Source: Candidatus Omnitrophota bacterium
GTDB taxonomy: Bacteria; Omnitrophota; Gorgyraeia; Zapsychrales; Zapsychraceae
Reading direction: 5' to 3'
Length of the DNA stretch: 64,000 bases
NCBI GenBank assembly: GCA_029261065.1
Contig: JAJDCB010000030.1
Coordinates: 324,876 to 388,875 of the forward strand
The notes under the pieces were generated by a model. The model searched no databases. It was given only the letters and a program-made list of their open reading frames with translations, and was not told the DNA's origin. The translations under genes and the position numbers were made by a program. Positions within the stretch are counted from its first letter, which is position 1; each line of letters opens with the position of its first letter. Of this stretch, positions 2,930 through 53,699 are shown one piece after another.

Positions 2930-3130
2930 GATGTCAATTATTCTATTTTGGTCCTCGTAATGTGTCAGAGCAAAGAGGATAAAAGGAAATCCTGTGAAAG
3001 TCAGGAGCAGTCCCGCTACTGTAACTTGTGATATTTTTACAAGAAGTCAGAACACTGCCAAAATAGTTATTCAGTATTTCTCGCGTGAGACGAGGGTTAT
3101 TGAGCATATATTTTGGGAATAAGAAAGAGG
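2930..3130 (+). promoter_or_regulatory. cobalamin (adenosylcobalamin) riboswitch aptamer
   Basis: AAGGAAATCCTGTGAAAGTCAGGAGCAGTCCCGCTACTGTAAC matches the cobalamin-riboswitch core consensus, including a B12-box-like CCCGCtACTGTAA (GGTGAAAnTCC...GAGC.G.CCCGCCACTGTAA in the consensus). A second ACACTGCCA element lies downstream. It sits upstream of a BtuB-like receptor. Confidence 0.6.
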
Positions 3131-3268: not shown

Positions 3269-5263
3269 ATGAAAAGATATGTCTTAAGTGTTTTAGTAGC
3301 AACAGTTTTTGTTTTAAATGCGTATAGGGTTGAAGCAAAATTAATAACAGAACATGATGAGGTCGTTGTCACAGCAACACGCATTGCTCAATCGAATTAT
3401 AAGATTGCAAGCAACGTCACGGTTCTGACCGCGGAACAAATTCAGGCGTCGCCCGCGCAAAATTTGGCTGACATCTTAGAAGAAGCGGTGGGTGTTTTTG
3501 TAACAGATAATAGTACCTTAAGATCAAAGGTTATCGATATTCGTGGATTCGGTGATACGGCAACACGAAATGTCTTGGTGTTAATTGATGGCAGACGTGT
3601 CAACGCAATTGACATCTCTGCTCCAGACCTTACTCAAATTCCGTTAGAGGCCATTGAGCGTATCGAAATTATTCGAGGAGCTGGTTCTGTTCTCTATGGA
3701 GATAATGCGGTAGGGGGTGTTGTTAACATCATTACAAAACAAGGGGAAGGTGAGTTCTCTGGATATGTAGGGGGCACACATGGAAATTATGATGCGCGTA
3801 GTACGGACATGGAAGTGTCCGGTGAGAAAAACAATGTTTCTTATTATTTTTTCTCTAAGTATAACGATCAGCGCGGTTATCGTAAGAATAGTGATTTGTT
3901 AGCTAAGGATTTTAGTTCACGTTTAGGCTACGACTTTACCGATACTATTAAAACGGATTTAAGTGTTGGTTATCATAAGGATGTCCAAGAGTTACCCGGG
4001 GGCTTAAGTGGTCCAAACTTAACAACATTGGGTCGACGAGGATCAGCATCTAATAATGATACATCTTCAAGCACCGATCGTTATGTAAAATTGACATTGG
4101 ACGTGGAACCCTGGCCAGAAGATGAAACATTAGGGGAGATCGTTGTTGATTTTTATTATCGCAATCGCGATGTTTATACAGAGTTTAACTCTTTTAGTTC
4201 TTTTCATACCAAGCGATCTTTGGACACCAAAGGCCTTAGCGCTAAATACATCTTTGATCGTACCATTTTTGAGAAGGAAGTTAATTTTGTAACAGGTATC
4301 GATTATTATGAACATGAAAATGATATCTTAGGAAGTGGAACAAATCCGGATGATTTAACCATTTCTAAAGATGAATACGGTATTTATGGATTTTTGCAGT
4401 ATGAATTAATGGATGATGTCTTTATTAATGGAGGAACCCGTTATCATAAAGCGGATTATACGTTTAATCAGAGAAACCTAATGACGGAAAGTGATCGTGA
4501 TCCAGATGATTGGGTCTCTATGGTCGGTGCGAAATGGGAATATGCGAAAGGTTCTAGTATTCATATGAATGCGCAACAAACATTTCGTTTTCCAACAACA
4601 GATGAATGGTATAGTTCCTTTTCTGGAACACTTAATACCGCTTTGGATCCTCAATCGGGCATTCAATATGAGGCTGGCATCAAACATAATTTTGATGATA
4701 TCGCTATTGTGAGTGTCACTCCTTATTATATTTTAATGGATGACGAAATATTTTTTGATCCCGTCACATTCGCCAATGGTAATCTAGACAAAACGCGACG
4801 GATTGGTGTTGAGTTTAGTAAAAAGGTGGATTTACTTAGTATTTTTGAGTTAGATATTCTTGATAAACTTGAATACTTTGCTAATTATACATTTCAGAAT
4901 CCAGAGTTTATAAGGGGAGCGAATAAGGGGAAAGATGTCCCATTGGTTCCTCGTCAACAAGCAGGAACGGGACTTATTGTCGGGTTTAATGACCATGTCA
5001 CTGTTTCGTTATTAGGAACTTATATTGGGTCACGCTTTGCTATCAATGACACCGCTAATGCCACGACACCAGCTAAACCTTATTTCATTTTTGATGGAAA
5101 GGTTTCCTACAAGTTAAAACATCTTGAGGTCTTTGGTTCCGTCAACAACATCACTAATGTGTTATATTCTCCATTTGTTGTTAAGTCAGCGTTTAGTTCA
5201 ACCAAAAACTTTTTTCCAGCTCCTGAACGGAATTTTACGGCTGGAGTGAAGTTTAGGTTTTAA
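3269..5263 (+). CDS. btuB: TonB-dependent outer-membrane receptor, BtuB-like (vitamin B12/corrinoid)
   Basis: Signal peptide. TonB box DEVVVTATR. Plug-domain motifs VLVLIDGRRVN and GGVVNIIT are close to E. coli BtuB. C-terminal aromatic residue (RF). Sits downstream of the B12 riboswitch. Confidence 0.75.
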   Translation: MKRYVLSVLVATVFVLNAYRVEAKLITEHDEVVVTATRIAQSNYKIASNVTVLTAEQIQASPAQNLADILEEAVGVFVTDNSTLRSKVIDIRGFGDTATRNVLVLIDGRRVNAIDISAPDLTQIPLEAIERIEIIRGAGSVLYGDNAVGGVVNIITKQGEGEFSGYVGGTHGNYDARSTDMEVSGEKNNVSYYFFSKYNDQRGYRKNSDLLAKDFSSRLGYDFTDTIKTDLSVGYHKDVQELPGGLSGPNLTTLGRRGSASNNDTSSSTDRYVKLTLDVEPWPEDETLGEIVVDFYYRNRDVYTEFNSFSSFHTKRSLDTKGLSAKYIFDRTIFEKEVNFVTGIDYYEHENDILGSGTNPDDLTISKDEYGIYGFLQYELMDDVFINGGTRYHKADYTFNQRNLMTESDRDPDDWVSMVGAKWEYAKGSSIHMNAQQTFRFPTTDEWYSSFSGTLNTALDPQSGIQYEAGIKHNFDDIAIVSVTPYYILMDDEIFFDPVTFANGNLDKTRRIGVEFSKKVDLLSIFELDILDKLEYFANYTFQNPEFIRGANKGKDVPLVPRQQAGTGLIVGFNDHVTVSLLGTYIGSRFAINDTANATTPAKPYFIFDGKVSYKLKHLEVFGSVNNITNVLYSPFVVKSAFSSTKNFFPAPERNFTAGVKFRF

Positions 5264-5274
5264 TTTGAAGGCAC

Positions 5275-5420
5275 GAGCATCGATTGGTGGTCATTAGCAA
5301 GAGCACTGATTAGTGGTCGCTTCAAGACCACCGATTAGTGGTCACTAGCAAGATCACCGATTGGTGGTCGCTAGCAAGAGCACTGATTGGTGTTCGCTTC
5401 AAGACCACCAATTGGTGATC
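5275..5420. repeat. tandem array of about 6 copies of a 26-bp unit (CACYGATTRGTGGTCRCTWSCAAGAS), each with a short palindrome (CACCGATTGGTG)
   Basis: Seen directly, immediately downstream of the btuB stop. Confidence 0.7.
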
Positions 5421-5424
5421 TTTT

Positions 5425-5447
5425 AATACGCATACCCATGGTATAAT
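5425..5447 (+). promoter_or_regulatory. candidate extended -10 promoter (TGGTATAAT)
   Basis: TGnTATAAT at 5438-5446 with a weak -35. Would give a leader of about 170 nt for the following gene. Confidence 0.3.
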
Positions 5448-5625
5448 CAATGCAACCCCATCAGCACACAAACAAAATTTGTATAGAAAAAGGCGATACT
5501 TATTTGGATTTAGATGGCAGGACTGTTTTTACAGAACAATATCTTTTAAAGCGTGGATACTGTTGTGAGAATAACTGCCGACACTGTCCTTATGGGTTTA
5601 GGCTTGATACATTTAAGGAGGCGTC

Positions 5626-6363
5626 ATGAACGCTGTTTTAAATTGGAGTGGGGGGAAAGATTCTTCTTTAACGTTACATTATTTAAATCAATCCAAAGAA
5701 TACGATGTGAAGTATTTATTGACGTCGGTCAGTAGTCAATATCAGCGTATTTCTATGCATGGGGTTCGTATCGAACTTCTTAAAACACAAGCTAAGAGTC
5801 TTGGCATTCCGTTGCGTATTATAGAGATGCCTGAGGAGCCAACCATGACGGAATATGATGCGTTGATGCGGCAGACTTTGGGCGTTTTTAAAAGAGAGGG
5901 GATTCGTCATTCTATTTTTGGTGATATTTTTTTGGAAGACTTAAAGAAATATAGAGAAGATCAATTGGCCAAGGTTGATTTTAAAGGCGTATTTCCTCTA
6001 TGGCTTAAATCAACACAGGAATTGGTCAAAGAGTTTATAGATTTAGGTTTTAAGGCTGTACTCGTGTGTGTGAATGAAAAGTTTTTGGATCAATCTTTTG
6101 TTGGACGGATCATTGATCACAGGTTTGTGAAAGATCTTCCCGCAAACGTTGATCCGTGTGGTGAAAATGGAGAGTTTCATACTTTTGTTTACGACGGCCC
6201 CATTTTTAAGGCACCTATTTCTTTTGAAAAGGGAGAGGTTGTTTATCGCAAATACAAAATGCGTGAATCTGATAATGAAGCTATGGATCAAGTTTGTCCA
6301 AGTTCGAAGGAATTAAAAATCCATACGGGTTTTTGGTATTGTGATTTGTTGCCTAGTGAATAA
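5626..6363 (+). CDS. Dph6/MJ0570-family PP-loop ATP pyrophosphatase (adenine-nucleotide alpha-hydrolase fold)
   Basis: N-terminal SGGKDS PP-loop (NWSGGKDSSL). Length of about 245 aa is typical of the MJ0570/diphthine-ammonia-ligase-like family. Strong RBS AAGGAGG 6 nt upstream. Confidence 0.65.
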   Translation: MNAVLNWSGGKDSSLTLHYLNQSKEYDVKYLLTSVSSQYQRISMHGVRIELLKTQAKSLGIPLRIIEMPEEPTMTEYDALMRQTLGVFKREGIRHSIFGDIFLEDLKKYREDQLAKVDFKGVFPLWLKSTQELVKEFIDLGFKAVLVCVNEKFLDQSFVGRIIDHRFVKDLPANVDPCGENGEFHTFVYDGPIFKAPISFEKGEVVYRKYKMRESDNEAMDQVCPSSKELKIHTGFWYCDLLPSE

Positions 6364-6399
6364 AAGAATGATTCAAAGTGTGTTATTCTAGAATCAACT

Positions 6400-6500
6400 G
6401 GATTCCCGATGTCTCGGGAATGACAAGTGTACTTGAACACTGGATTCCTGATGATTCAGGAATGACAGGACACCTTGTCATTCCCGCAAAAGCGGGAATC
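6400..6500. repeat. three dRS3-like units (GGATTCC-N-GGAATGACA, two direct and one inverted)
   Basis: Seen directly. ATTCCC/ATTCCT-N8-GGGAAT cores. Confidence 0.7.
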
Positions 6501-6535
6501 TACTTTGTTAATTTAATTGTGAAGAAGTAATCAAC

Positions 6536-7450
6536 ATGAAAAAACAAATCGCCGCTATTTTTTTACTTTTTGTCGTCACTGCGCTATTTTTCTCGCCAAA
6601 AAGTTTGTGTCAAACACAACTAGATGTACCGAGTTCTCATCAACGTATTATCTCGTTATCTCCATCGATTACCGAAATTCTTTACGCTCTTGGGGCTGGC
6701 GACCAAGTTGTTGGGGTTACGCGTTTTTGCAATTTTCCTCCTGAGGCTAAAGATAAACCAAAAGTAGGAGGGCTTCTTGATACTAGTTTCGAATTCATTT
6801 ATCGTCTTAAACCGGATCTTGTGTTGTTGCAAAAAGGTGAGATGGGCCAAAAGATGAAATTGGAACAAATGGGTGTGAAAACTGTGGAAACGAAAACGAA
6901 AAGCATTGAGAGCATTTTAGAATCGATTAAGCTGATTGGTGATCTTTTATCGAAGACGTCAGAGGCGAAGGCTATTATTAATCGTATTGAAAAGCGCGTC
7001 TCTTTCATTGAAACACAAACCCAAGGATTAAAGCCTCCTCGTGTTTTAATCACCTTCTCGCGTCATTTTGGGAAAAGAACCATTGAACAAGTTTACATCG
7101 CCGGTCAAGATACGTTTTTTGCAGATCTTTTAAGAGTCTCTGGGGGGAAAAACGCTTATGAGGGAACAGAATTTGTTACAAGTCCGTTAGTCTCCGCGGA
7201 GGGAATATTAAGAATGAATCCCGATATTATTATCGAGATTATGTCTAGTTTAGATGATTTGGGATTAACCCAAGAGGACGTATTAAAAGATTGGGAGAGT
7301 TTAAATCATTTGGATGCTTACAAAAATGAAAAGATATTTATTATCACAGATTCATTCATTGGTATTCCAGGACCCCGGATTGATCAATCTCTAGATGCGT
7401 TTGTACGCATTCTACATTCAGAGGTTGATTGGGAAGGTTTAGATGATTGA
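6536..7450 (+). CDS. btuF: periplasmic substrate-binding protein of a BtuF/HmuT-type (TroA-like) ABC importer
   Basis: Signal peptide. Motif RIISLSPSITEILYALGAGDQVVGVT is typical of cobalamin/heme/siderophore binding proteins. Genomic context with btuB and the riboswitch. Confidence 0.7.
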   Translation: MKKQIAAIFLLFVVTALFFSPKSLCQTQLDVPSSHQRIISLSPSITEILYALGAGDQVVGVTRFCNFPPEAKDKPKVGGLLDTSFEFIYRLKPDLVLLQKGEMGQKMKLEQMGVKTVETKTKSIESILESIKLIGDLLSKTSEAKAIINRIEKRVSFIETQTQGLKPPRVLITFSRHFGKRTIEQVYIAGQDTFFADLLRVSGGKNAYEGTEFVTSPLVSAEGILRMNPDIIIEIMSSLDDLGLTQEDVLKDWESLNHLDAYKNEKIFIITDSFIGIPGPRIDQSLDAFVRILHSEVDWEGLDD

Positions 7451-7460
7451 GGGTTTTAGA

Positions 7461-7642
7461 GCAAGAATAACCAAGTTACAAGAGACAAGGTACAAAAAAG
7501 AAACAAAAATCAATAACCAATTAACCAAACAGTTTGATTATTGGGTTATTGTGAATTGGTTATTTTTTGCCTTTGCGTCTAGAGACGCAGGTCACGGCCA
7601 AAGGCCGTGATATCTTGTACCTTGTAACTTGGTTATTCTTGC
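7461..7642. mobile_element. MITE-like element, copy A (182 bp) with perfect 22-bp terminal inverted repeats GCAAGAATAACCAAGTTACAAG
   Basis: Seen directly. Internal palindromes GCGTCTAGAGACGC and CACGGCCAAAGGCCGTG. Homologous copies at 15320, 41793 and 53507. Confidence 0.75.
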
Positions 7643-7665
7643 TCGTTATTCAAACTAGGATAATT

Positions 7666-8454
7666 ATGACAAATAATGTCGTTGAGTTTAATAATTTTTC
7701 ATTTTCATATGGATCCTCGCCCATTCTTCATCAGATCAATTTAAATGTGAAAGTTGGTCAGTATGTCTCTGTGATTGGCCCTAATGGTGCGGGGAAGTCT
7801 ACGCTTTTAAAGAATATCAATCGGATTGTCAAAGGTGGGACGGGGGAGGTTTTGCTTTTTGGAAAAGAATTGGCGCGTTATAAACAAAAAGACATTGGAC
7901 GATTAGTGGGTTATGTTCAACAGGCCCGTGATCGTATTTATTCTTACCGGGTTTTCGATTTTGTGCTCATGGGACGTTATCCGTATTTAAATCCCCTTTC
8001 TCGTGTGTCCTCTAAAGATAAAGATGTTGTTCATCACATGCTTGATGTTATGGGGATAGCCTCCTTTGCCAATCGTGATATGAACACGTTAAGTGGTGGG
8101 GAGCGGCAAAAGGTTTATTTGGCAGCCGCCCTTGCTCAAGAACCTAAACTGCTCCTCTTAGATGAACCCACGACGTATCTGGATCCAAAATATGAGGTTG
8201 AAATTCAAAAAACCATTTCAAAGACAACTAAAAGATTAGGCATATCCGTCATGCATGTCACGCATGATTTAAATCATATTTATCATTGGAGCCAACATGT
8301 CGTTGCAATGAAAGAAGGGCGCATTTTATTTCAGGGAAAAGCTCAAGATGTTTTAACGGAGTCGCATCTCAAAGATATATTTGATACGGAATTTCATTTG
8401 ATGAAGGATCCTGATTCAGGAAAAATAGTGATTGTTACGAAGGTGGGTGTGTAA
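7666..8454 (+). CDS. btuD: ABC importer ATP-binding protein (BtuD/FhuC-like)
   Basis: Walker A GPNGAGKST, signature LSGGERQ, Walker B LLLLDEPT. Start moved to the ATG at 7666 (RBS AGGA) because the longer ORF starts inside the MITE. Confidence 0.8.
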   Translation: MTNNVVEFNNFSFSYGSSPILHQINLNVKVGQYVSVIGPNGAGKSTLLKNINRIVKGGTGEVLLFGKELARYKQKDIGRLVGYVQQARDRIYSYRVFDFVLMGRYPYLNPLSRVSSKDKDVVHHMLDVMGIASFANRDMNTLSGGERQKVYLAAALAQEPKLLLLDEPTTYLDPKYEVEIQKTISKTTKRLGISVMHVTHDLNHIYHWSQHVVAMKEGRILFQGKAQDVLTESHLKDIFDTEFHLMKDPDSGKIVIVTKVGV

Positions 8455-8455
8455 A

Positions 8456-9436
8456 ATGGCTGTACGCACAAAAATTCTATGTCTTTTTATTATTTCATTA
8501 ATCACACTTATGATAGCCCCTTTGTTAGGGGCGAAGTTGATAGGGTTTAGTGATATTTTTGACGCGTCAAAAAACAATATTGATTCAGATGTGTTTTGGC
8601 AGATGCGTTTGCCGCGTGTATTAGTTGCCTTTATGGCTGGGGCTATATTTGCATTAAGCGGCATGGTCTTTCAGGCGTTGTTTCGCAATCCTTTGGTATC
8701 ACCTTTTACGTTAGGCGTGTCCGCCGGAGCTTCTTTCGGCGCATCCGTTTATATTTGGTTAGGTTTGGCGGTAAGCTTTTTAGGGATATCAGGCATATCA
8801 TTATTTTCTTTTTGTGGTGCGATGTTATCGATTGTTATTGTGTGGTCCTTAGCCAAGATGAAGGGAGGAACATCGGTAGCCACGATGTTGTTAGCCGGGG
8901 TTGCTGTTAGTTTCTTTTTTGGAAGTTTAATCTTATTCGTTCAATATTTAAGTGGCGTGGTGGAAGCCTTTAAAATTTCTCGGTGGTTAATGGGTGGTTT
9001 ATTTGTTTTTGGATATAAACCCGTTTTTGACATTCTACCCTTTGCCTTAATTGGTTTATGTTCTGTTTGGTACTTTACACATGAGTTAAATATTTTTACA
9101 ACAGGTGAAGAATTAGCCATCGCGCGTGGCGTGGATGTTGAGCGCACGGTCAAAATATTATTCTTTCTAATCTCCATCATGATCGGTGGCGTTGTCTCGG
9201 TCTGCGGCCCCATTGCCTTCATCGGCATCATCGCCCCCCACATCTGCCGCCTCATCGTAGGCCCCGATCACCGCTATCTCACGCCCGCCACATTTCTTTT
9301 CGGCGGCCTCTTCCTAACCATCTGCGACGCCCTATCCCGATCCCTCATAGCCCCCGCCGAAATCCCTGTAGGCATCATCACAGCCTTGCTTGGCGGTCCG
9401 TTTTTTTTGTGGTTGTTGGTTAAAAAAAGCTTATGA
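8456..9436 (+). CDS. btuC: ABC importer permease, FecCD/BtuC family
   Basis: About 10 TM helices and FecCD-family conserved blocks. ATG lies immediately after the btuD stop, with an AGGTGGGTG RBS. Confidence 0.75.
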   Translation: MAVRTKILCLFIISLITLMIAPLLGAKLIGFSDIFDASKNNIDSDVFWQMRLPRVLVAFMAGAIFALSGMVFQALFRNPLVSPFTLGVSAGASFGASVYIWLGLAVSFLGISGISLFSFCGAMLSIVIVWSLAKMKGGTSVATMLLAGVAVSFFFGSLILFVQYLSGVVEAFKISRWLMGGLFVFGYKPVFDILPFALIGLCSVWYFTHELNIFTTGEELAIARGVDVERTVKILFFLISIMIGGVVSVCGPIAFIGIIAPHICRLIVGPDHRYLTPATFLFGGLFLTICDALSRSLIAPAEIPVGIITALLGGPFFLWLLVKKSL

Positions 9437-9439
9437 TAT

Positions 9440-9540
9440 TATACCTTAAAGGGTATATTATAAGATAAATTATACCTTAATGGGGATAATTTATATGAAA
9501 TATACTTGAAATTATACCCGATTGGTGTTATATTTATATT
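9440..9540 (+). promoter_or_regulatory. HipB-operator-like palindromes (ATACC-N6-GGTAT and TATACC-N7-GGATAA) upstream of hipB
   Basis: Seen directly. Resembles the TATCC-N8-GGATA HipB operators (established for E. coli HipB). Confidence 0.3.
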
Positions 9541-9543
9541 GTT

Positions 9544-9777
9544 ATGGATGACAAAATACGAATAATAGATGGTGAGCCTATCTCTTTGCAAATAAAGAGT
9601 TTAAGAATGAAAAGTGGCTTAACTCAAGTTGAGTTTGCTAAACGGGTTGGGGTGGGCTTACGGTTTTTACGAGAGCTTGAGCAAGGGAAGACTACGGTAA
9701 GAATGGATAAGCTTGTACAGGTTTTGGATTTCTTAGGCTATCATTTAGATTTAAAGAAAAATGAACCGCAATATTAA
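9544..9777 (+). CDS. hipB: HipB-like XRE-family helix-turn-helix regulator
   Basis: 77-aa HTH protein (LTQVEFAKRVGV). First gene of a three-gene module. Confidence 0.7.
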   Translation: MDDKIRIIDGEPISLQIKSLRMKSGLTQVEFAKRVGVGLRFLRELEQGKTTVRMDKLVQVLDFLGYHLDLKKNEPQY

Positions 9778-9785
9778 AGGAAAAG

Positions 9786-10127
9786 GTGCTTATGAAGGTG
9801 TTAAGAAAAGCAAATGTTTTTTATATTAATGAATTGGCGGGGCATCTTACAGAGACTTCAGAAGGGTACATTTTTCAATACGATTCTAGCTTTTTAAAAA
9901 AGAATATCCCCATCTCTTTGACCTTACCTCCAAGGGAAGAGGCTTATGAATCAAAAGAATTATTTTTGTTTTTTAAAGGTCTTTTACCAGAAGGGTGGTA
10001 TTTGGATATCGTGAGTGCCACACAAAAAGTGGATAGCCAGGATTCATTTGGGGTCTTATTAGCTACGGCGAGTGTTGATACTATAGGTGCGGTTACGGTA
10101 AGGAAGGTCGATATTACAAATGAATGA
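9786..10127 (+). CDS. hipS: HipS-like protein (stand-alone HipA N-terminal subdomain)
   Basis: 113-aa protein between the HTH gene and the kinase gene, overlapping the kinase gene by 8 nt. Matches the HipB-HipS-HipT tripartite arrangement. Confidence 0.55.
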   Translation: MLMKVLRKANVFYINELAGHLTETSEGYIFQYDSSFLKKNIPISLTLPPREEAYESKELFLFFKGLLPEGWYLDIVSATQKVDSQDSFGVLLATASVDTIGAVTVRKVDITNE

Positions 10128-10983
10128 GAAATTTTTAAAAAAGATGTTTAATTCAACACGAACGCCGATAATAAATTTTGGTTTAGCCGATTTATCTCAA
10201 CAAGCGCAAAGATTAGCTGGAAAACTGTCCATCTCGGGTGTTCAGCCAAAATTATCCGTTAAGTTGGATAAAAAAAGTAATGAGTTAATTGTTGTTAATG
10301 ATGGGGGCGAATATATATTAAAACCACAAATCGCGACCTTCACGCATATTCCTGAGAATGAACAGTGTTGTATGGATATAGCAGAGAAGTTGGGTATTGA
10401 TATTCCTCTACATTGTTTGTTACCTTTAAAAGATAAAAGCTTTGCCTATGTCGTTAAAAGATTTGATCGAGATAAGGGTACAAAAATTCATCAAGAAGAT
10501 TTTGCGCAATTGCTTGAGCAAAATGATAAGTATAAAGGGTCTGTAGAGCATATTGGTCGAAAGTTAAAAGATATATCCTCAATTCCAGGTTATGATCTCC
10601 AATTGTTTTTTGAAAGGGTTGTCCTTAATTTTATCCTCGGGAATGGTGATGCCCATCTAAAAAATTATTCTATGTTATATAAAGATGGTAACACTCGATT
10701 AACTCCTGCCTATGATATTGTTTGTTCAAAGTTAGTTATCCCCGAGGAAGAAGACTCGGCCTTAACCATTAATGGTAAAAAGAATAATTTAAAAAGGGAT
10801 GATTTTGAGAAGTTAGCTGAGTATTTCAATATTCCTACGAAGGTTCGGTATGAAAAGTTTGAAGGAAAACTTGATGTAATGAACCAATGTATTGAATCTT
10901 CAAATATGAGTCAGGACAAGCAAAAGCGGTTTATCGAGATTATAAATGAGAGATTAAGACGTTTGGAGTTATTAAAAAGATAG
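10120..10983 (+). CDS. hipT: HipT-like Ser/Thr kinase toxin (HipA C-terminal kinase core)
   Basis: HipA catalytic motif GNGDAHLKNYS. Gly-rich loop SISGVQPKLS. Confidence 0.65.
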   Translation: MNEKFLKKMFNSTRTPIINFGLADLSQQAQRLAGKLSISGVQPKLSVKLDKKSNELIVVNDGGEYILKPQIATFTHIPENEQCCMDIAEKLGIDIPLHCLLPLKDKSFAYVVKRFDRDKGTKIHQEDFAQLLEQNDKYKGSVEHIGRKLKDISSIPGYDLQLFFERVVLNFILGNGDAHLKNYSMLYKDGNTRLTPAYDIVCSKLVIPEEEDSALTINGKKNNLKRDDFEKLAEYFNIPTKVRYEKFEGKLDVMNQCIESSNMSQDKQKRFIEIINERLRRLELLKR

Positions 10984-11090
10984 CAGGCGGTATATTTAAT
11001 AAAAGAAAATAGAATAAAAGAAAGAAATGTGAAGCTTTAGGTTTATCTGTTAATTTGATTTAATAAATTGTCTTTTTTGCCATCTCCACC

Positions 11091-11186
11091 CTCCTCATAG
11101 CCCCCGCCGAAATCCCCGTAGGCATCATTAAAGCTTTACTTGGGGGACCATTCTTCTTGTGGTTACTGGTGAAGAAGCGGTTATAA
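11091..11186 (+). repeat. duplicated copy 2 of the btuC 3' end (about 96 bp, about 85% identical, reading frame partly intact)
   Basis: Seen directly. CTCATAGCCCCCGCCGAAATCCCcGTAGGCATCAT...TTGTGGTT aligns with 9343-9436. Confidence 0.8.
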
Positions 11187-11285
11187 TTTCTCATAGTTAA
11201 TAATAATTGATAGTGTTTGGAAAAAGAGACAAATCATTGTAAACTTGTATTAATTATTCAAATTACATGAAATGGAGGAGAAGCT

Positions 11286-11507
11286 ATGACGACAAAAGAA
11301 ATTGAAAAAAGCGCATTGAAATTAAAGCCTCTTGAAAAAATTAAACTTGTCGATAAGTTATTAATTAGTCTAGATAAGCCCAATCCGGATATTGAACGGT
11401 TATGGCTAAAAGAGGCTGAATCTAGAGTTGATGCCTATGAGAAGGGTGAATTAAAAACTTCATCTTATGAAACAGTTAAAAAAAATACTAAAAGACGTAA
11501 AAAATGA
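11286..11507 (+). CDS. antitoxin of a ParE/RelE-type module (putative addiction-module component)
   Basis: 73 aa, charged C-terminus. Overlaps the downstream toxin gene by 4 nt (ATGA). Confidence 0.5.
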   Translation: MTTKEIEKSALKLKPLEKIKLVDKLLISLDKPNPDIERLWLKEAESRVDAYEKGELKTSSYETVKKNTKRRKK

Positions 11508-11797
11508 AAGTGTATCTTACTCTATTATCCAAAAAAGAATATCAAGAGGCTGTAGCGTATTATGACGAACAGAGTAGAGTGGTGGGAGATAAATTTATAG
11601 CTGAGGTTGAGGAGGCGATTGATTTGATTCGGTATTATGGGTTAGCATGGCCAAAAGTAACAAAGAATTTACGTAGATATGTCTTAAAGCGATTTCCTTA
11701 TATGATGTTGTACAAAATATATAAAGATCGAATCGTTATTTTTGCTATTGCCCATCAACATCGACATCCAAGTTATTACTTAAAGAGAACTTCTTAG
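11504..11797 (+). CDS. ParE/RelE-family toxin (plasmid stabilisation system protein)
   Basis: 97 aa. C-terminal H/R-rich region (AHQHRHPSYYLKR) typical of the ParE/RelE fold. Forms an operon with the upstream small gene. Confidence 0.55.
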   Translation: MKVYLTLLSKKEYQEAVAYYDEQSRVVGDKFIAEVEEAIDLIRYYGLAWPKVTKNLRRYVLKRFPYMMLYKIYKDRIVIFAIAHQHRHPSYYLKRTS

Positions 11798-11884
11798 AAT
11801 TGGCTGACACCTTTATTTTTTTGATTGATGTATGTAATATTTATGTTGCACTTGTAACATGAATGTTACAAGTCGGAAGCTACC

Positions 11885-11952
11885 TTCATCGCGCCCCCCG
11901 AAATCCCCGTAGGTATCGTTACGTCCTTGCTTGGAAAAGATTATAACTTCTG
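11885..11952 (+). repeat. duplicated copy 3 of the btuC 3' end (degenerate), preceded by the hairpin CTTGTAACAT-GAA-TGTTACAAG
   Basis: Seen directly. CCCCCCGAAATCCCCGTAGGTATCGTT...CTTGCTTGG aligns with copies 1 and 2. Confidence 0.7.
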
Positions 11953-14318: not shown

Positions 14319-15320
14319 ATGCAAAGAAACAAGGTTCTCGTTACAGGTGGAGCCGGTTTTATTGGAAGTCATGTGGTTGATCGACTGTTACAGGATCACC
14401 ATCAGATAACTGTTATTGATAATTTCTCGACGGGAAGACAGGCAAATCTTAATCATCTTAAAAGTAACCCTAATCTAACCATTATTGAAGCCGATATTCG
14501 CGATTTAGCTTCAATTGCGCCTCATTTTCAAAACATCGATATGGTTTTTCATCTAGCGGCATTAGCCGATATCGTACCCTCCATTGTTAATCCAACAGAA
14601 TATTATTCAGCCAATGTTATGGGATCTATGAATGTCCTTGAAGCTTCCCGGCAAGCAGGTGTTAAGCGTTTTGTTTATACCGCATCGTCTTCCTGTTATG
14701 GCATTCCAGATGAAACCGTAGCCACCAAAGAAACTCAAAGTATTGATACGCAATATCCGTATGCATTAACAAAATATATTGGCGAAGAAACCGCTTTTCA
14801 TTGGGCGAACATTTATGATCTACCTCTTGTGTCTTTAAGACTGTTTAATGTTTATGGTCCTCGTTCACGCACATCTGGAACGTATGGGGCTGTGTTTGGT
14901 GTGTTCTTGGCGCAAAAATTAAGTAATAAGCCGTTCACGGTTGTGGGTGATGGTGAACAGACGCGAGATTTTATTTTTGTCACGGATGTTGCTAACGCTT
15001 TTGTGACAGCCGCGTATTCTGAGGTTACCAACGAAGCTTTTAACGTAGGAACAGGAAAACCACAAAGTGTGAATAAGTTGGTGTCGCTTCTTGGTGGAGA
15101 AAAAATTCATATTCCCAAAAGACCTGGGGAACCAGATTGCACGTGGGCCGATATTACAAAGATTAAAAATCAACTGAGTTGGGCGCCGCAGGTTTCGTTT
15201 GAAGAGGGTGTGGGGGAGATTTTAAAAAATATTGATTATTGGAAGGATGCACCGGTTTGGACACCTGAGGCAATTGGAGAAGCTACGGAAGATTGGTTTA
15301 AGTATTTAGGGAAGAGTTAG
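14319..15320 (+). CDS. UDP-glucuronate decarboxylase (UXS/ArnA C-terminal-like) extended SDR
   Basis: VLVTGGAGFIGSHVVDRLL...VIDNFSTGRQANL closely resembles the UXS N-terminus. YxxxK motif present (YALTK). Confidence 0.6.
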   Translation: MQRNKVLVTGGAGFIGSHVVDRLLQDHHQITVIDNFSTGRQANLNHLKSNPNLTIIEADIRDLASIAPHFQNIDMVFHLAALADIVPSIVNPTEYYSANVMGSMNVLEASRQAGVKRFVYTASSSCYGIPDETVATKETQSIDTQYPYALTKYIGEETAFHWANIYDLPLVSLRLFNVYGPRSRTSGTYGAVFGVFLAQKLSNKPFTVVGDGEQTRDFIFVTDVANAFVTAAYSEVTNEAFNVGTGKPQSVNKLVSLLGGEKIHIPKRPGEPDCTWADITKIKNQLSWAPQVSFEEGVGEILKNIDYWKDAPVWTPEAIGEATEDWFKYLGKS

Positions 15321-15536
15321 CAAGAATAACCAAGTTACAAGATACAAGGTATCCCGCCGTCGGCGGGACCCCGCCAACGGCGGGGCAAAAAAGATACAAA
15401 AACCAATTACGGAACAACCAAACAGTTTGGTTATTTAGTTATTGGTGAATTGGTTATTTTTTGCCTTTGCGTCTAGAGACGCAGGTCACGGCCGAAGGCC
15501 GTGATATCTTGTAACTTGTACCTTGGTTATTCTTGC
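15320..15536. mobile_element. MITE-like element, copy B (217 bp), same TIRs plus a GC-rich hairpin insert (CCCGCCGTCGGCGGG / CCCCGCCAACGGCGGGG)
   Basis: Seen directly. Confidence 0.75.
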
Positions 15537-21194: not shown

Positions 21195-22139
21195 ATGCGA
21201 AAAACAGCTCTTAACTGTGTTTATGAATTAGCGAAATCTAACCCGGATATCTTTTTTATCGGATCTGATTTAGGCGTTGATACCTTAAAAGCATTTAAAG
21301 AAGAGATGCCTGAGCGTTTTTTGATGGAGGGGGTGAGTGAAGCCAATGTTGTTGGCATGGCTGCCGGTCTTGCTCTTGAGGGAAAGACGGTTTATGTCAA
21401 TACCATCGCAACGTTTTTAACCCGTCGTTGTTTTGAACAGGTTGTTTTGGATTTGGGGTTACATAATGTTAAGGTTCGCTTGATTGGAAATGGCGGCGGT
21501 GTTGTTTATGCCCCGTTAGGCCCAACACATTTAGCGATTGATGATATTGCTATCATGAGAGCCATTCCTAATGTGACCATTGTTGCCTGCGCGGATGCCG
21601 TTGAGATGAAGAAGTTGATTGTCCAAACCGTTGATTATCCAGGTCCTATGTACATTCGTTTAGCTAAAGGGCATGATCCTTTGGTGACGCAAGAAGAGAC
21701 TCCGTTTGAAATTGGTAAAGCGATTCGTATGAAGAGGGGAGATGATGGATTGATTTTAACAACGGGCATTACATTACGAACAGCTCTTGAGGCGATAAAA
21801 ACATTAGAAGTTCAAGGATTAGATGTGGGTATTGTACATGTCCCGACGATCAAACCGTTGGATACAGATTTTATTCGTACTCAAATTGATGCTGTCCCAT
21901 TAGTAGTCAGTGTCGAGGAGCACACCATTATGGGTGGATTAGGAAGCGCGATTGCTGAGTTGATTGCCGAATCAACGTTTGAAGCACCAAAAGGATTTAA
22001 ACGTATTGGTATTCCAGATATTTTTCCAGATCAATATGGGTCACAAGATAGTTTGATGGAGAGGTGCGGGGTATCTGCTGGAGCTATTGTTGCTGCGATT
22101 TGGGAAATCAGTAAGAAGTATGTAGTAAGTAGTAGGTAG
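21195..22139 (+). CDS. transketolase, C-terminal (pyrimidine-binding) subunit
   Basis: Transketolase pyrimidine-domain blocks. Starts 1 nt after the upstream stop. Confidence 0.8.
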   Translation: MRKTALNCVYELAKSNPDIFFIGSDLGVDTLKAFKEEMPERFLMEGVSEANVVGMAAGLALEGKTVYVNTIATFLTRRCFEQVVLDLGLHNVKVRLIGNGGGVVYAPLGPTHLAIDDIAIMRAIPNVTIVACADAVEMKKLIVQTVDYPGPMYIRLAKGHDPLVTQEETPFEIGKAIRMKRGDDGLILTTGITLRTALEAIKTLEVQGLDVGIVHVPTIKPLDTDFIRTQIDAVPLVVSVEEHTIMGGLGSAIAELIAESTFEAPKGFKRIGIPDIFPDQYGSQDSLMERCGVSAGAIVAAIWEISKKYVVSSR

Positions 22140-22251
22140 AAAGATAAAAGAGAATTAAGTAAGGAGTAAGTCGTAGGTGGTAGGTAGAAATGTGTTTTTG
22201 TTTTCTACTTACAACATACAACTTACTACCTACCGAACTAAAGGAGCAAGC

Positions 22252-22914
22252 ATGAGTCAACTATGTAACATCGTCACCCCATTACACCAACGGACATCAA
22301 GAAAATATATTGATCGGATGGTCGATGAAAAAGTTCAGTGTATGTATAAAGCGAAAGAATACGAGTTTGACTATTGGGATGGGGATAGAAGATTTGGGTA
22401 TGGCGGTTATAAATATGATGGGCGATGGAAAGAGGTTGCTGAACGTTTTATTGAACGTTATCAATTAAAGAGTGATGCCAAGATTTTGGATATTGGTTGC
22501 GGGAAGGCTCATTTGTTACATGAATTAAAAGAGTTGTTACCTGATGCTGAAGTTGTCGGGTTTGACATCTCCGACCATGGTATTAGTGATGCTCCAAAAG
22601 AGATTCGTGAGAATCTTTTTCGATATCGTGCTCAAGATAAATATCCTTGGGGTGATAAGCATTTTGATTTGGTTTTATCGTTAGGGTGCTTTCATAATCT
22701 ACGGATTTTCGAATTGGAATCCGCAGTTAAAGAAATGGAACGTGTCGGTAAAAATAAATACATTATGTTAGAAAGTTACCGCAACGAACTCGAACTCTTT
22801 AACCTCCAGTGCTGGGCCTTAACCTGCGAATCTTTTTTTGATACCGCAGAATGGATTTGGTTGTATCGGCATTTTGGGTATACGGGGGATTATGAGTTTA
22901 TTTATTTTGAATAA
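22252..22914 (+). CDS. class I SAM-dependent methyltransferase
   Basis: Motif I ILDIGCGKAHLL. RBS AAGGAG. The longer ORF start was rejected. Confidence 0.7.
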   Translation: MSQLCNIVTPLHQRTSRKYIDRMVDEKVQCMYKAKEYEFDYWDGDRRFGYGGYKYDGRWKEVAERFIERYQLKSDAKILDIGCGKAHLLHELKELLPDAEVVGFDISDHGISDAPKEIRENLFRYRAQDKYPWGDKHFDLVLSLGCFHNLRIFELESAVKEMERVGKNKYIMLESYRNELELFNLQCWALTCESFFDTAEWIWLYRHFGYTGDYEFIYFE

Positions 22915-22917
22915 CAG

Positions 22918-22991
22918 CTGTCATTCCCGCGGAAGCGGGGATCTGTACGGGATGACATTTGCGTGTGTCATTCCTGCGAAAGCGGAAAACC
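22918..22991. repeat. dRS3-like units (TGTCATTCCCGCGGAAGCGGGGATC and TGTCATTCCTGCGAAAGCGGAAAAC)
   Basis: Seen directly. Confidence 0.7.
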
Positions 22992-23022
22992 GTGCGGGTC
23001 GATTAATAGAGGAGAATAAAAT

Positions 23023-23325
23023 ATGATGACTAAAGATGATGTTGTTAAAATTCTTCGAGAAGAACAACCTTACTTAAAAAAAGAATTTGGTATAAAGAGA
23101 ATGGCTATATTTGGTTCTTTTGCGAAAAATACAGCCTCGGAATTAAGTGATGTTGATATTTTTATTGAATTTGATGGACGGTTAGGACTTAGATTCATGG
23201 AATTGGTTGAATATTTAGAAAAAAAACTAAATAGAGAGGTAGACATTCTGACACCAGGCGGTATGGAAGGAATTCGGGTAAAGAAAGTTGTTGAAGAAAT
23301 TCAAAGGAGTTTGTTAGATGTCTAA
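23023..23325 (+). CDS. MNT-type nucleotidyltransferase antitoxin
   Basis: GSFAKNTASELSDVDIFIEF nucleotidyltransferase motif (GS-x9-DxD). Confidence 0.7.
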   Translation: MMTKDDVVKILREEQPYLKKEFGIKRMAIFGSFAKNTASELSDVDIFIEFDGRLGLRFMELVEYLEKKLNREVDILTPGGMEGIRVKKVVEEIQRSLLDV

Positions 23326-23665
23326 ACGAGGAGATATTGAATTATTGAGCGATATTCAAGAGGCTATTAAAAGGATTTTTGAATATCGAGGACATATGAG
23401 TTACGAGCAGTTTATGGAAGATTTGAAAACTCAAGATGCGATTGTTAGAAATATGGAAATTGTTGGTGAGGCTGTGAAAGGTTTATCTGATGAGCTAAAA
23501 GGAAAATATCCACAAGTTTCTTGGAGTGAGTTAGCAAAAGTAAGAGATAAATTGATTCACCATTATTTTGGTGTAAATTATGACATTGTAATTGAAATCA
23601 TTGATGAAAATTTACCTAAAGTTCAACAGCATATTGAAGAAATTTCGGGTCAGATGTCAGGGTAG
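23318..23665 (+). CDS. HepT-type (DUF86) RNase toxin
   Basis: R-x4-H-x-Y motif (RDKLIHHY). 8-nt overlap with the MNT gene. Confidence 0.7.
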   Translation: MSKRGDIELLSDIQEAIKRIFEYRGHMSYEQFMEDLKTQDAIVRNMEIVGEAVKGLSDELKGKYPQVSWSELAKVRDKLIHHYFGVNYDIVIEIIDENLPKVQQHIEEISGQMSG

Positions 23666-23684
23666 TACTTGGTTTGTCATTTTA

Positions 23685-23790
23685 TCCCGAATTGTCATTC
23701 CCGTGAAAGCGGGAATCTATACGGAGCGATTAATATATTTTAGTTCATAGTTTTACTATTTTGAGGTTCCCGCTTTCGCGGGAATGACAA
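23685..23790. repeat. dRS3-like units (TGTCATTCCCGTGAAAGCGGGAATC and inverted GGTTCCCGCTTTCGCGGGAATGACA)
   Basis: Seen directly. Confidence 0.7.
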
Positions 23791-23823
23791 TATTATTAGT
23801 TAACAATTATTGAGAGATATCCC

Positions 23824-24915
23824 ATGCCAAGCCAAACACAGGAACAAGATCAGCAAGTAGATGCCAGCAAGACAAAAACTTCAAAAGCCGCAATTCTCGT
23901 CGAGCTAAACAAACCCCTAGAAATCGCCGAGATCGAATTACCAGAGCAACTTTTTTTTGGACAAGTACGCGTTAAGGTGAAGTACAGCGGCATTTGTGGC
24001 GCGCAGATTAATGAGATTGAGGGGGCGAAGGGGCCGGATAAATTTTTACCGCATTTGTTAGGGCATGAAGGATCCGGTGTGGTTGAAGAAGTTGGTCCGG
24101 GTGTTAAGACTGTCAAAGTTGGTGATCATGTGGTGTTGCATTGGCGTCCGAGTGATGGGTTGCAATGTGAGCCGCCGAATTATTCTTGGAATGGTAAAAA
24201 AGTTAATGCTGGTTGGGTGACCACGTTTAATGAGCGTGCGATTATTTCTGAAAATCGTTTAACAGTGATTCCAAAAGATTTTGATATGCGTATAGCTCCT
24301 CTGTTTGGATGTGCGGTGACAACAGCTGTGGGTGTTATCAATAATGATGCGCAGGTAAAAATGGGGCAATCGGTTGTTGTCTTTGGAGTAGGTGGTGTGG
24401 GTTTAAATATTGTTCAAGCCGCTGAGTTAGCATCAGCAACGCCTATCATTGCCATTGATTTAGTGGAATCTAAATTGACGATGGCGAGAAAGTTGGGTGC
24501 AACTCATAGTTTTCAATCCCAGAAGGTGGATGATTTAAAACAAGCGATTCGAGACATTGTAGGGGAAAAAGGACCAGATGTCATTATTGAAACAACAGGC
24601 AACGCGAGTGTGATTGAAATGGCGTATGAACTGACACACCCGGATGGTAAAACAATTCTTGTTGGTGTTCCTCGAAAAGGTGACAACATCTCTATTTATT
24701 CGTTACCGCTTCATTTTAAGAAAGTATTAACAGGTTCCCACGGTGGCAGCTGTGAACCTCATATTGATATTCCGCGATTAATCCGATTAAAGGAAAGCGG
24801 AAAGCTTAAATTAGATGAGCTGATCACTCATGAATTTAAATTGGAAGAAATTAATAAGGCATTAGAGGTATTAAAATCAGGTGATTCTGGCCGGATTATT
24901 ATTTCGATGGAATAA
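23824..24915 (+). CDS. zinc-dependent medium-chain alcohol dehydrogenase (class III ADH-like)
   Basis: GHEGSG(V) zinc-ligand motif and GxGxxG NAD fold (VFGVGGVGL). Confidence 0.75.
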   Translation: MPSQTQEQDQQVDASKTKTSKAAILVELNKPLEIAEIELPEQLFFGQVRVKVKYSGICGAQINEIEGAKGPDKFLPHLLGHEGSGVVEEVGPGVKTVKVGDHVVLHWRPSDGLQCEPPNYSWNGKKVNAGWVTTFNERAIISENRLTVIPKDFDMRIAPLFGCAVTTAVGVINNDAQVKMGQSVVVFGVGGVGLNIVQAAELASATPIIAIDLVESKLTMARKLGATHSFQSQKVDDLKQAIRDIVGEKGPDVIIETTGNASVIEMAYELTHPDGKTILVGVPRKGDNISIYSLPLHFKKVLTGSHGGSCEPHIDIPRLIRLKESGKLKLDELITHEFKLEEINKALEVLKSGDSGRIIISME

Positions 24916-41792: not shown

Positions 41793-41956
41793 CAAGAATA
41801 ACCAAGTTTATTCTGTTGTTTGATTTTTCTCATTTTGTTTCTTGATTATTTTTTGCCAGGCATCCAGAGATGCCGGTCCCAACCAAAGGTTGGGATATCT
41901 TGCCCCGCTTTTGGCGGGGTCACGCCGAAGGCGGGATACCTTGTACCTTGGTTATT
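41793..41956. mobile_element. MITE-like element, copy C (degenerate, about 164 bp) with a GC-rich hairpin
   Basis: Seen directly. GCAAGAATAACCAAGTT...CCTTGGTTATTC. Confidence 0.6.
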
Positions 41957-41999
41957 CCAGCGCGGTTAATTTAATTAATGATTACCATAAGGACATATT

Positions 42000-53468: not shown

Positions 53469-53506
53469 ATTCGCTTAAGGCCAGGGCATTGTCAAAAGAG
53501 CAATGA

Positions 53507-53655
53507 AAGATACAAGTTACAAGACACAAGATACAAAAAAATATCAATGTTCAAGGTCCAATAACCAAAAAGGCTATCGTCAAGAAATTGTTTGGAATTT
53601 TTATTTTGTGAATTGTTTCTTTTTTGTATCTTGTGTCTTGTAACTTGGTTATTTT
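53507..53655. mobile_element. MITE-like element, copy D (degenerate; GTTACAAGACACAAGATACAAAAAA ... TTTTTTGTATCTTGTGTCTTGTAACTTGGTTATT)
   Basis: Seen directly. It separates the hisF-like and hisH-like genes. Confidence 0.55.
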
Positions 53656-53699
53656 ATAGAGTTTTTGACAATACGAAGACCATATCAAGGAGCTAATAA

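Follow-up and report, generated by a model that had tools for sequence, protein, structure and literature searches.

A toxin-antitoxin pair between dRS3/NTS-type repeats forms a lineage-specific insertion in a conserved nucleotide-sugar type operon

A 64,000-nt stretch of DNA with 37% GC (hereafter, the window) contains a toxin-antitoxin (TA) pair that lies among short hairpin repeats inside an operon of nucleotide-sugar type. The operon encodes an HldE-like kinase/cytidylyltransferase-like protein, a SIS isomerase, epimerases, a split transketolase, a methyltransferase and a Zn-dependent alcohol dehydrogenase (ADH). Between the methyltransferase and ADH genes there are, in this order, two repeat units, an MNT (MntA-like) nucleotidyltransferase antitoxin gene, a HepT ribonuclease toxin gene, a degenerate partial unit and two further full units (Table 1). 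The initial annotation had proposed that the TA pair is inserted in an otherwise biosynthetic operon. Comparison with 46 homologous operons, in which this junction is tight, bears the proposal out: the 871-bp block at 22919-23789, which consists of the repeats and the TA pair, is a derived, lineage-specific insertion.

Relatives of the ADH were found in 56 genome loci from Omnitrophota, Verrucomicrobiota, Acidobacteriota, Nitrospirota, Latescibacterota, Burkholderiales and Methanoregula. In these loci, the order epimerase, 209-aa protein, APH-family kinase, split transketolase, methyltransferase and dehydrogenase is conserved, and the operon order (loci L002-L050) is kept at 56-80% protein identity across Omnitrophota, Verrucomicrobiota, Acidobacteriota, Nitrospirota, Latescibacterota, Proteobacteria and Methanoregula. 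Because the order is kept across such distant phyla, this uncharacterised sugar-modification pathway seems to have spread widely by horizontal transfer. Orthologues of the window methyltransferase, which are 64-80% identical to it, lie directly upstream of ADH in 46 loci. The gap between the two genes has a median length of 22 nt, and it is 97 nt or shorter in 40 of the 46 homologous operons with both genes; in the window, it is 909 nt. MNT/HepT genes were found at this junction in none of the 46 operons, and no repeat unit was found in any of the 56 ADH loci. Only 4 nt separate the stop codon of the methyltransferase gene from the start of the block. It should be mentioned that the next-best ADH homologue is 76% identical and thus the comparison is made across phyla. 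The only other copy of the locus, identical to the window, is carried by a 3.7-kb Logan contig (L001), which breaks at the repeat; the gene call on this contig gives a methyltransferase of 220 aa.

Other inserts are present at the same junction in 6 of the 46 loci, across phyla. For example, a Verrucomicrobiia metagenome-assembled genome (MAG) has an open reading frame (ORF) for a PD-(D/E)XK protein (PDDEXK_3, 'GxxExxY'-type) with its own short flanking repeats (L048:9545-10000). Palindromic repeats of the CCCTCTCCC/GGGAGAGGG type lie there in L037 (627-876) and L042 (9659-10000), and a reverse-strand reductase-like gene occupies the junction in a Xanthobacteraceae MAG (L028:6775-8019). Other lineages have thus placed unrelated inserts here, and the methyltransferase-ADH junction itself tolerates insertions and is a recurrent point of insertion. 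In the window itself, a 48-nt duplication (82% identical) at 22104-22190 takes in the last part of the transketolase C-subunit gene together with the spacer that leads to the methyltransferase gene.

Both ends of the block are formed by repeat units. The outer units (22919-22944 and 23764-23789) are inverted over 26 nt and 88% complementary, and their tags point outward. Inside them, two 43-nt direct repeats (22966-23008 and 23693-23735) bracket the TA pair and are identical at 34 of 43 positions, including CGATTAATA. On the left side, repeat and tail together run to 23008, 14 nt before the MNT start codon. On the right side, the degenerate partial unit lies 9 nt past the HepT stop codon and the first full unit 27 nt past it. 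The units thus abut the pair, as the initial annotation had stated. The three plus-strand units of sites C and D share a tail, C-T/C-R-T-R-CGG..., and the units at the two other repeat sites of the window (A and B) do not have it. Therefore, these three units are local copies of one another. The segment 22948-22957 (CGGGATGACA) was considered as a truncated inverted unit and rejected, because its alignment is better explained by the shared tail. Repeat units occupy 4 of 59 gene junctions, and both TA junctions would be occupied by chance with P = 0.0035; P is 0.044 when the calculation is restricted to the 17 gaps of 60 nt or more, and this is a post hoc calculation in which the gaps are largely the repeats themselves.

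Table 1. Coordinates of the inserted block, its flanking genes and the four repeat sites in the window.
Feature	Position	Strand	Remarks
SAM-dependent methyltransferase	22252..22914	+	TAA 22912-22914; Pfam Methyltransf_31/25/11; last operon gene before the insertion
Unit C_fwd1	22919..22946	+	TGTC-ATTCCCGC-GGAA-GCGGGGAT-CTGT; fits the SRM motif; left end of block
Unit C_fwd2 with tail CCGTGCGGGTCGATTAATA	22966..23008	+	degenerate stem; left copy of 43-nt direct repeat; 47 nt after C_fwd1, in tandem
Cassette leader	23010..23022	+	13 nt; Shine-Dalgarno AGGAG 23010-23014, 8 nt ahead of ATG
MNT (MntA-like) nucleotidyltransferase antitoxin	23023..23325	+	100 aa; PF01909 E 1.4e-13, PF18765
HepT (HEPN) ribonuclease toxin	23318..23665	+	115 aa; PF01934 E 8.6e-27
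Degenerate partial unit TGTCATTTTATCCCGAAT	23675..23692	+	in 27-nt trailer after HepT stop; read from the sequence
Unit D_fwd with tail CTATACGGAGCGATTAATA	23693..23735	+	right copy of 43-nt direct repeat; left arm of dimer; 3 mismatches to NTS
Unit D_rev	23762..23789	-	right arm of dimer 23693-23789; right end of block
Residual spacer	23790..23823	+	34 nt before ADH start; about the length of the whole gap in relatives
Zn-dependent alcohol dehydrogenase (ADH)	23824..24915	+	PF00107/PF08240; first operon gene past the insertion
Site A	2688-2715, 2749-2776	-, +	tags inward; between minus-strand gene and cobalamin riboswitch; -34.7 kcal/mol, z = -10.9
Site A stem variant ATCCCCGC/GCGGGGAT			compensatory T:A to C:G
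Site B	6398-6425, 6440-6467, 6476-6503	-, -, +	between Diphthami_syn_2 gene and BtuF-like binding-protein gene
Site B unit	6440-6467		compensatory C:G to T:A
Site C	22919-22946, 22966-22993	+, +	head-to-tail tandem
Site D	23693-23720, 23762-23789	+, -	inverted dimer

The Pfam matches (PF01909 and PF01934) confirm the earlier naming of the pair as MNT/HepT. In the translations, the MNT motif GS-x9-13-DxD (GSFAKNTASELSDVDIF) and the HepT Rx4H motif (RDKLIH) are intact, and the two ORFs overlap by 8 nt. These features are shared with type VII HepT/MntA systems, in which the end of a small MNT gene runs into the HepT gene that follows it. In contrast to those systems, the window pair has no predicted promoter and its NCBIfam scores (MntA_antitoxin, 37.4 bits; HepT_toxin, 45.8 bits) are both under the 60-bit cut-off. 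Because its scores fall short of these equivalog cut-offs, the pair belongs to HepT/MntA at the family level only, and we regard it, on the basis of its sequence, as a putative type VII-like TA system. The closest HepT homologues are 59-68% identical and are mostly encoded in Omnitrophota/Elusimicrobiota MAGs, and the MNT-HepT pairing is also present in the HepT relatives examined. The GC content of the TA pair is 32.4%, compared with 38.2% and 42.3% in its neighbours. Prediction of promoters and terminators over 22000-24200 gave no plus-strand promoter and no terminator; the seven promoter-like matches in this range are all on the minus strand and at chance level (shuffle mean 7.1). The TA pair is therefore probably transcribed with the operon.

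When the window was scanned for ATTCCC-N8-GGGAAT with at most one mismatch, five matches were obtained (three exact and two with one mismatch), compared with 0.15 expected, and none of 100 shuffles reached five. A looser scan combined with repeat finding gave nine hairpin units at four intergenic sites (A-D), and the ranges reported initially for the repeats at four sites match these units. Their layout is TGTC-ATTCCCGC-GAAA-GCGGGAAT. In each of the nine units, a 5′ TGTC tag precedes an 8-bp stem whose first two bases are AT; a loop of 4 nt, the return stem and a short tail follow. The stems are paired in 95.8% of cells over the nine units and compensatory changes occur in three of the eight pairs; the observed covariation score was reached by none of 500 shuffles. 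Changes of the G-U type are also present. The 3′ tail is CCA in two units (B_rev1 and B_rev2) and CTC, TCG, CTA, CTG or CCG in the rest, and two tail types recur within the window. The spacers between units are 8-46 nt long, except for the 699-nt stretch that bears the TA pair (22993 to 23693). Every unit is intergenic, and at sites B, C and D the genes on either side are co-directional. The pairs at sites A, B and D are inverted, and each of these dimers folds as a single long hairpin (z from -7.5 to -10.9); the tandem at site C does not (z = -1.9). At site D, the two 28-nt arms are 93% complementary and the dimer has a folding energy of -28.6 kcal/mol (z = -7.5).

These repeats belong to the CGTC-1 family of tagged repetitive extragenic palindromic (REP) sequences, the family that contains Neisseria dRS3 and is now also known as NTS/SRM; it is already described and very widespread. 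CGTC-tagged REPs were defined by Di Nocera, De Gregorio and Rocco in 2013, and CGTC-1 includes Neisseria dRS3 and Rickettsia RPE-6 (PMC3733652). In its members, an unpaired 5′ CGTC tag (with TGTC and CCTC variants) leads into an AT-initial 8-bp stem with a 4-nt loop, and the short 3′ tail, in most cases CCA, is again unpaired. Most members lie in intergenic DNA whose neighbouring genes are co-directional or convergent; inverted dimers are frequent, and the members occur without the REP-associated tyrosine transposase (RAYT) (PMC3733652). The window units share the TGTC tag, the 8-bp AT stem, the 4-nt loop, the intergenic placement and the dimers folding as long hairpins, and they too have no associated tyrosine transposase among the ORFs scanned. 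However, there are differences. Only two of the nine units have the CCA tail, the others ending in CTN or CCG; at site C, the two units follow each other head to tail, an arrangement that is negligible in the published family (PMC3733652); the tags face inward at sites A and B; and the best protein matches of the host are to Omnitrophota, outside the five phyla listed in that study (PMC3733652). The initial annotation had called the repeats dRS3-like. As to tag, stem and loop this was correct, but its description of a merely 'comparable' family falls short, since the family is the same described one, for which a low-GC host other than Neisseria is to be expected.

Chenal et al. (2025) named the oriented 28-nt form NTS and defined a degenerate Ssn-related motif (SRM) (PMC11893778). 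SsnA is a small GIY-YIG protein that cuts single-stranded DNA (ssDNA) beside NTS, and the ssnA gene is typically flanked by inverted units of the motif (PMC11893778). The window units share the core CGTCATTCCCGCG-N-CGCGGGAATC with NTS. The SRM motif, HGTCWYN(0-2)YYVSBRHN(0-5)WNVSBRGN(0-2)RNCYNB, matches the window five times, and all matches are at units (five of the nine units); in 100 first-order Markov simulations of the window, the mean number of matches was 0.05 and the maximum was 1. No window unit fits the strict Neisseria NTS (CGTCATTCCCGCGMAVGCGGGAATCYRG) at one mismatch or fewer, and the best two have three mismatches.

We scanned metagenome contigs, and also viral contigs, with TGTCATYCCCG-N6-CGGGRAT. 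This 24-nt core was found in at least 120 metagenome contigs (29-69% GC) and at least 120 viral contigs, with an overall range of 29-71% GC. Among the matches listed, the metagenome copies are mostly inverted doublets of 68-112 nt with tags outward, and the CCA(G) tail is dominant. A GIY-YIG gene is present in 7 of the 120 metagenome loci and 6 of the 120 viral loci listed. In five metagenome loci (L071, L091, L093, L100 and L107), GIY-YIG genes of about 96 aa are tightly flanked on both sides by inverted, tag-outward units, and GIY-YIG genes are likewise flanked in viral contigs L206 and L255; the flanked loci of both kinds have 40-56% GC. GIY-YIG is also the commonest Pfam family among the small ORFs beside units (5 of 78, compared with 1 of 135 away from them). 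This association of GIY-YIG genes with the units is an independent reproduction of the published ssnA-NTS link and includes contigs of viral class. Because GIY-YIG genes adjoin the units in both samples, the window repeat is confirmed as a member of the NTS class. In many of the loci (L058-L177), six-frame ORFs that run over units yield pseudo-peptides such as VIPAKAGIQ, SFPRKRES, CHSRASGNP and IPAFAGMT; where such peptides stand in 'hypothetical protein' annotations, they are translations of the repeat and not genes.

Several other classes were compared with the locus. REPINs carry a GTAG tag and depend on RAYT (Bertels and Rainey 2011, PMC3116915). Site D resembles them as an inverted doublet with a short spacer that folds as one hairpin (97 nt, z = -7.5). 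However, CGTC REPs lack RAYT (PMC3733652), the tag in the window is TGTC and not GTAG, and no Y1 transposase was found among the ORFs scanned, the Pfam scans having taken in about 30 of the about 60 window genes; REPIN/RAYT was therefore rejected as the family. An integron cassette with attC sites was considered, since a promoterless cassette lies here beside palindromes, and was also rejected, because there is no integrase among the ORFs scanned (about half of the window genes) and the units, on reading, are without attC core-site features. Rfam has no family that matches the units.

Neisserial intergenic mosaic elements (NIMEs) are arrays of dRS3 units separated by RS repeat families of about 50-150 bp (Parkhill 2000; Bentley 2007, PMC1797815), and Bentley et al. 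proposed that a gene flanked by such arrays recombines into a chromosomal array (PMC1797815). The locus resembles NIMEs in its clustered dRS3-type units with short spacers beside a variable or accessory gene. It differs from them in that the cluster has only four to five units, no RS spacer family is recognisable within this one window, a DNA uptake sequence is absent and the organism is not Neisseria. Moreover, the enclosed genes are a TA pair within an operon and not a surface-protein gene, and no dRS3-targeting phage recombinase was seen among the genes scanned. A Neisseria origin was rejected, in agreement with the initial annotation: the uptake sequence GCCGTCTGAA has no copy in the window, the GC content is 37%, and the best protein matches are to Omnitrophota and other environmental MAGs.

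The initial annotation had also stated that dRS3/NIME repeats bound minimal mobile elements. This statement merged two concepts, because minimal mobile elements are defined by their flanking genes (PMC1797815). As far as this source describes them, the elements of Saunders and Snyder are alternative cassettes that lie between conserved flanking genes among strains and are not bounded by dRS3 (PMC1797815). The locus is like them in being an accessory cassette of three or fewer genes (here only MNT and HepT) that lacks mobility genes and has conserved genes on both sides. In contrast, the class rests on alternative cassettes at the strain level, whereas the comparison for the window is cross-phylum only, and the other inserts at 6 of the 46 junctions do not amount to exchange among strains.

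How the repeats and the TA pair came together can be explained in several ways. The explanation that we favour, tentatively and with less than even confidence, is that a NIME-like cluster of CGTC-1/NTS REPs stood at a permissive operon junction, and that the TA pair was captured by recombination at the REP units and kept by addiction. The cluster at the methyltransferase-ADH junction consists of four full units and one degenerate partial unit, with a promoterless, low-GC TA pair embedded in the orientation of the operon. The capture may have occurred in either of two ways. Recombination may have brought an array-flanked gene into the chromosomal array, which is the route that Bentley et al. 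suggested for NIMEs. Alternatively, a fragment bearing one unit, either circular or taken up by transformation, may have undergone a single crossover with a resident unit. Either route would leave direct repeats around the TA pair. The pair would then be read through with the operon and would be retained by addiction. The repeats would act as homology or nicking sites and not as dedicated cassette machinery.

Parallels for such a bracket exist on other contigs. The closest is an unrelated contig with 58% GC (L115:1161-2650), in which a reverse-strand PIN_3 toxin gene and an RHH/HicB-type antitoxin gene lie inside 137-nt direct repeats that are about 95% identical; each of these repeats contains one NTS-type unit and a second hairpin (GTAGGATGGGCTTTAGCCCATGCGG). 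In two further loci, a Phd/YefM antitoxin gene lies between two direct units (L167) and a DUF433 protein gene lies between two unit dimers (L108).

A number of observations weigh against capture at the units. Other segments bracketed by units carry ordinary genes, for example phosphate-transport permease-like and glycoside hydrolase-like genes (identified from their translations only). Among small ORFs in the 120 metagenome loci listed, TA-type Pfam families account for 3 of 78 beside units; of the 135 ORFs that lie away from units, at least 2 belong to such families, the control count being a lower bound because it covers the top 25 families; the difference is not significant. No units were found in the contigs of three of the closest HepT homologues (P0125, P0126 and P0127; 63-65% identical), which come largely from Omnitrophota MAGs, and since these HepT/MNT relatives are without units, the TA pair does not travel with the repeat. 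The other TA modules in the window, HipB/HipA (9544-10983) and a ParE-type pair (11286-11797), have no units nearby. By tblastn over the whole 64-kb window, there is no ssnA-type GIY-YIG gene, and Pfam scans of about 30 of the about 60 window genes gave no gene for Ssn, RAYT or any other recombinase. The 43-nt direct repeats are only 79% identical, which means that the event is old or never happened in this way. Finally, the nearest ADH homologue being 76% identical, there is no close relative in which the junction could be seen empty, with repeats alone or with another cassette. All components of the locus are of known kinds. The exchange of cassettes at the repeats, which the initial annotation had implied, is not borne out: the HepT relatives are without units, the TA enrichment is not significant and two TA modules of the window have no repeat.

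Some of these observations also speak for an independent co-occurrence, in which the TA pair was inserted at the permissive junction by an unrelated route and REP units colonised the neutral DNA later, or the reverse. We consider this possible, though rather unlikely. CGTC REPs are known in intergenic DNA between unidirectional genes (PMC3733652), and unrelated inserts occur at the same junction elsewhere (L048, L037, L042 and L028). At two of the four repeat sites in the window, A and B, the units flank ordinary genes. The insignificant enrichment of TA genes beside units and the closest TA relatives examined, which are without units, point in the same direction. However, the three plus-strand units share a tail that units at sites A and B do not have, and so they arose by local copying around the TA pair and not as independent arrivals. 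Moreover, the occupation of both TA junctions (P from 0.0035 to 0.044 under random placement) and the exact ending of the block in inverted units that abut the ancestral junction weigh against co-occurrence.

A stronger version of the capture proposal, which we regard as improbable, is that CGTC/NTS units serve as attachment sites for the gain and loss of promoterless TA cassettes at REP clusters. Such a system would be integron-like without an integrase, and it would perhaps be initiated by Ssn nicking of ssDNA during transformation or replication. The 43-nt bracket, the 137-nt bracket of L115 and the copies of the btuC 3′ end after two further TA modules in the window are compatible with it, and all would then be scars of cassettes inserted by a single crossover.

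Still less probable, in our judgement, is a composite non-autonomous element, in which the whole 871-bp block (unit, cargo, inverted unit), with an architecture like that of NTS-ssnA-NTS, would move as one piece and would be mobilised in trans by an Ssn-type GIY-YIG nuclease or an unknown transposase. Its ends are inverted and tag-outward like those at the GIY-YIG genes of the five metagenome loci and at ssnA (PMC11893778), and the tight junction is cleanly interrupted. Nevertheless, the window has no second copy, no TA genes with such ends were found among the HepT homologues examined and there is no evident target-site duplication. In addition, cutting of ssDNA is the only activity so far demonstrated for Ssn nucleases, and transposition is not (PMC11893778). 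The complementarity of the outer arms is 88%, and this model has no place for the inner units. Equally doubtful is a role mainly at the RNA level, which would be compatible with the other explanations and in which transcribed hairpins would set segmental mRNA stability or processing and insulate the TA pair and the operon from each other: REPs have been proposed as RNA elements (PMC3733652), the units lie in a co-directional operon with no promoter or terminator predicted nearby and the changes in the conserved stems are compensatory or of the G-U type, but both orientations occur at the same sites, the units also form long DNA-type palindromic dimers, the only demonstrated partner of the family acts on ssDNA (PMC11893778), Rfam has no match and the direct-repeat bracket is left unexplained.

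The locus is a clean, datable example: the 46 homologous operons give the ancestral junction, and both the inverted outer pair and the direct inner pair are preserved. It can be used as a test case for NTS-type repeats in gene capture outside Neisseria, and Chenal et al. noted that what Ssn nucleases and their motifs do biologically in other bacteria has yet to be worked out (PMC11893778). If such brackets prove recurrent in strains or across the genome, the repeats would be linked to gene capture far from Neisseria. The locus also documents the CGTC/NTS family in a further, probably Omnitrophota-like genome and illustrates that one operon junction can be a repeated target of small selfish inserts across phyla.

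Several further features were observed in the window. The sole Rfam match is a cobalamin riboswitch at 2932-3076 (55 bits, E 6e-11), with repeat site A just upstream of it; it precedes genes for a TonB-dependent receptor, a BtuF-like binding protein, an ABC ATPase and a FecCD permease (3269-9436). A 46-nt stretch is common to sites A and D (2672-2717 and 23746-23791, 85% similar) and reaches past the hairpin unit (CATnGTTTTACTATTnnGAG plus the unit). At site A, the minus-strand gene 1250-2675 probably has its start codon and leader within this stretch; at site D, the sequence lies in the dimer spacer. This stretch is either a second subtype of repeat tail or the 5′ end of a gene built on the repeat.

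A second TA island lies at 9343-11934, downstream of the FecCD/BtuC-type permease gene (8432-9436). It contains a HipB-like helix-turn-helix gene (9544-9777) and a split HipA gene (9786-10127 and 10120-10983), behind which the final ~95 nt of the permease gene recur as a copy (11093-11187, 81% identical). A 73-aa ORF and a ParE toxin gene (11286-11797) come after this copy and are followed by a third, shorter copy of the permease end (11886-11934). Each TA module is thus enclosed by direct repeats of the permease 3′ end, as would be expected if insertions by single crossover or by a site-specific route had followed one another.

A tandem array with a 25-26-nt period (5271-5420) separates the TonB receptor gene from the gene after it. 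Unrelated repeats of about 185 nt, which resemble miniature inverted-repeat transposable elements, are present at 7459-7644, 15320-15536, 41900-41964 and 53488-53672. They have terminal inverted repeats of about 35 nt (GCAAGAATAACCAAGTTACAAGATACAAGGTA) and internal GC-rich hairpins. Each copy lies where two operons meet or one begins, a short way upstream of the start of a gene, and the segments 7551-7642 and 15445-15536 are 97% identical.

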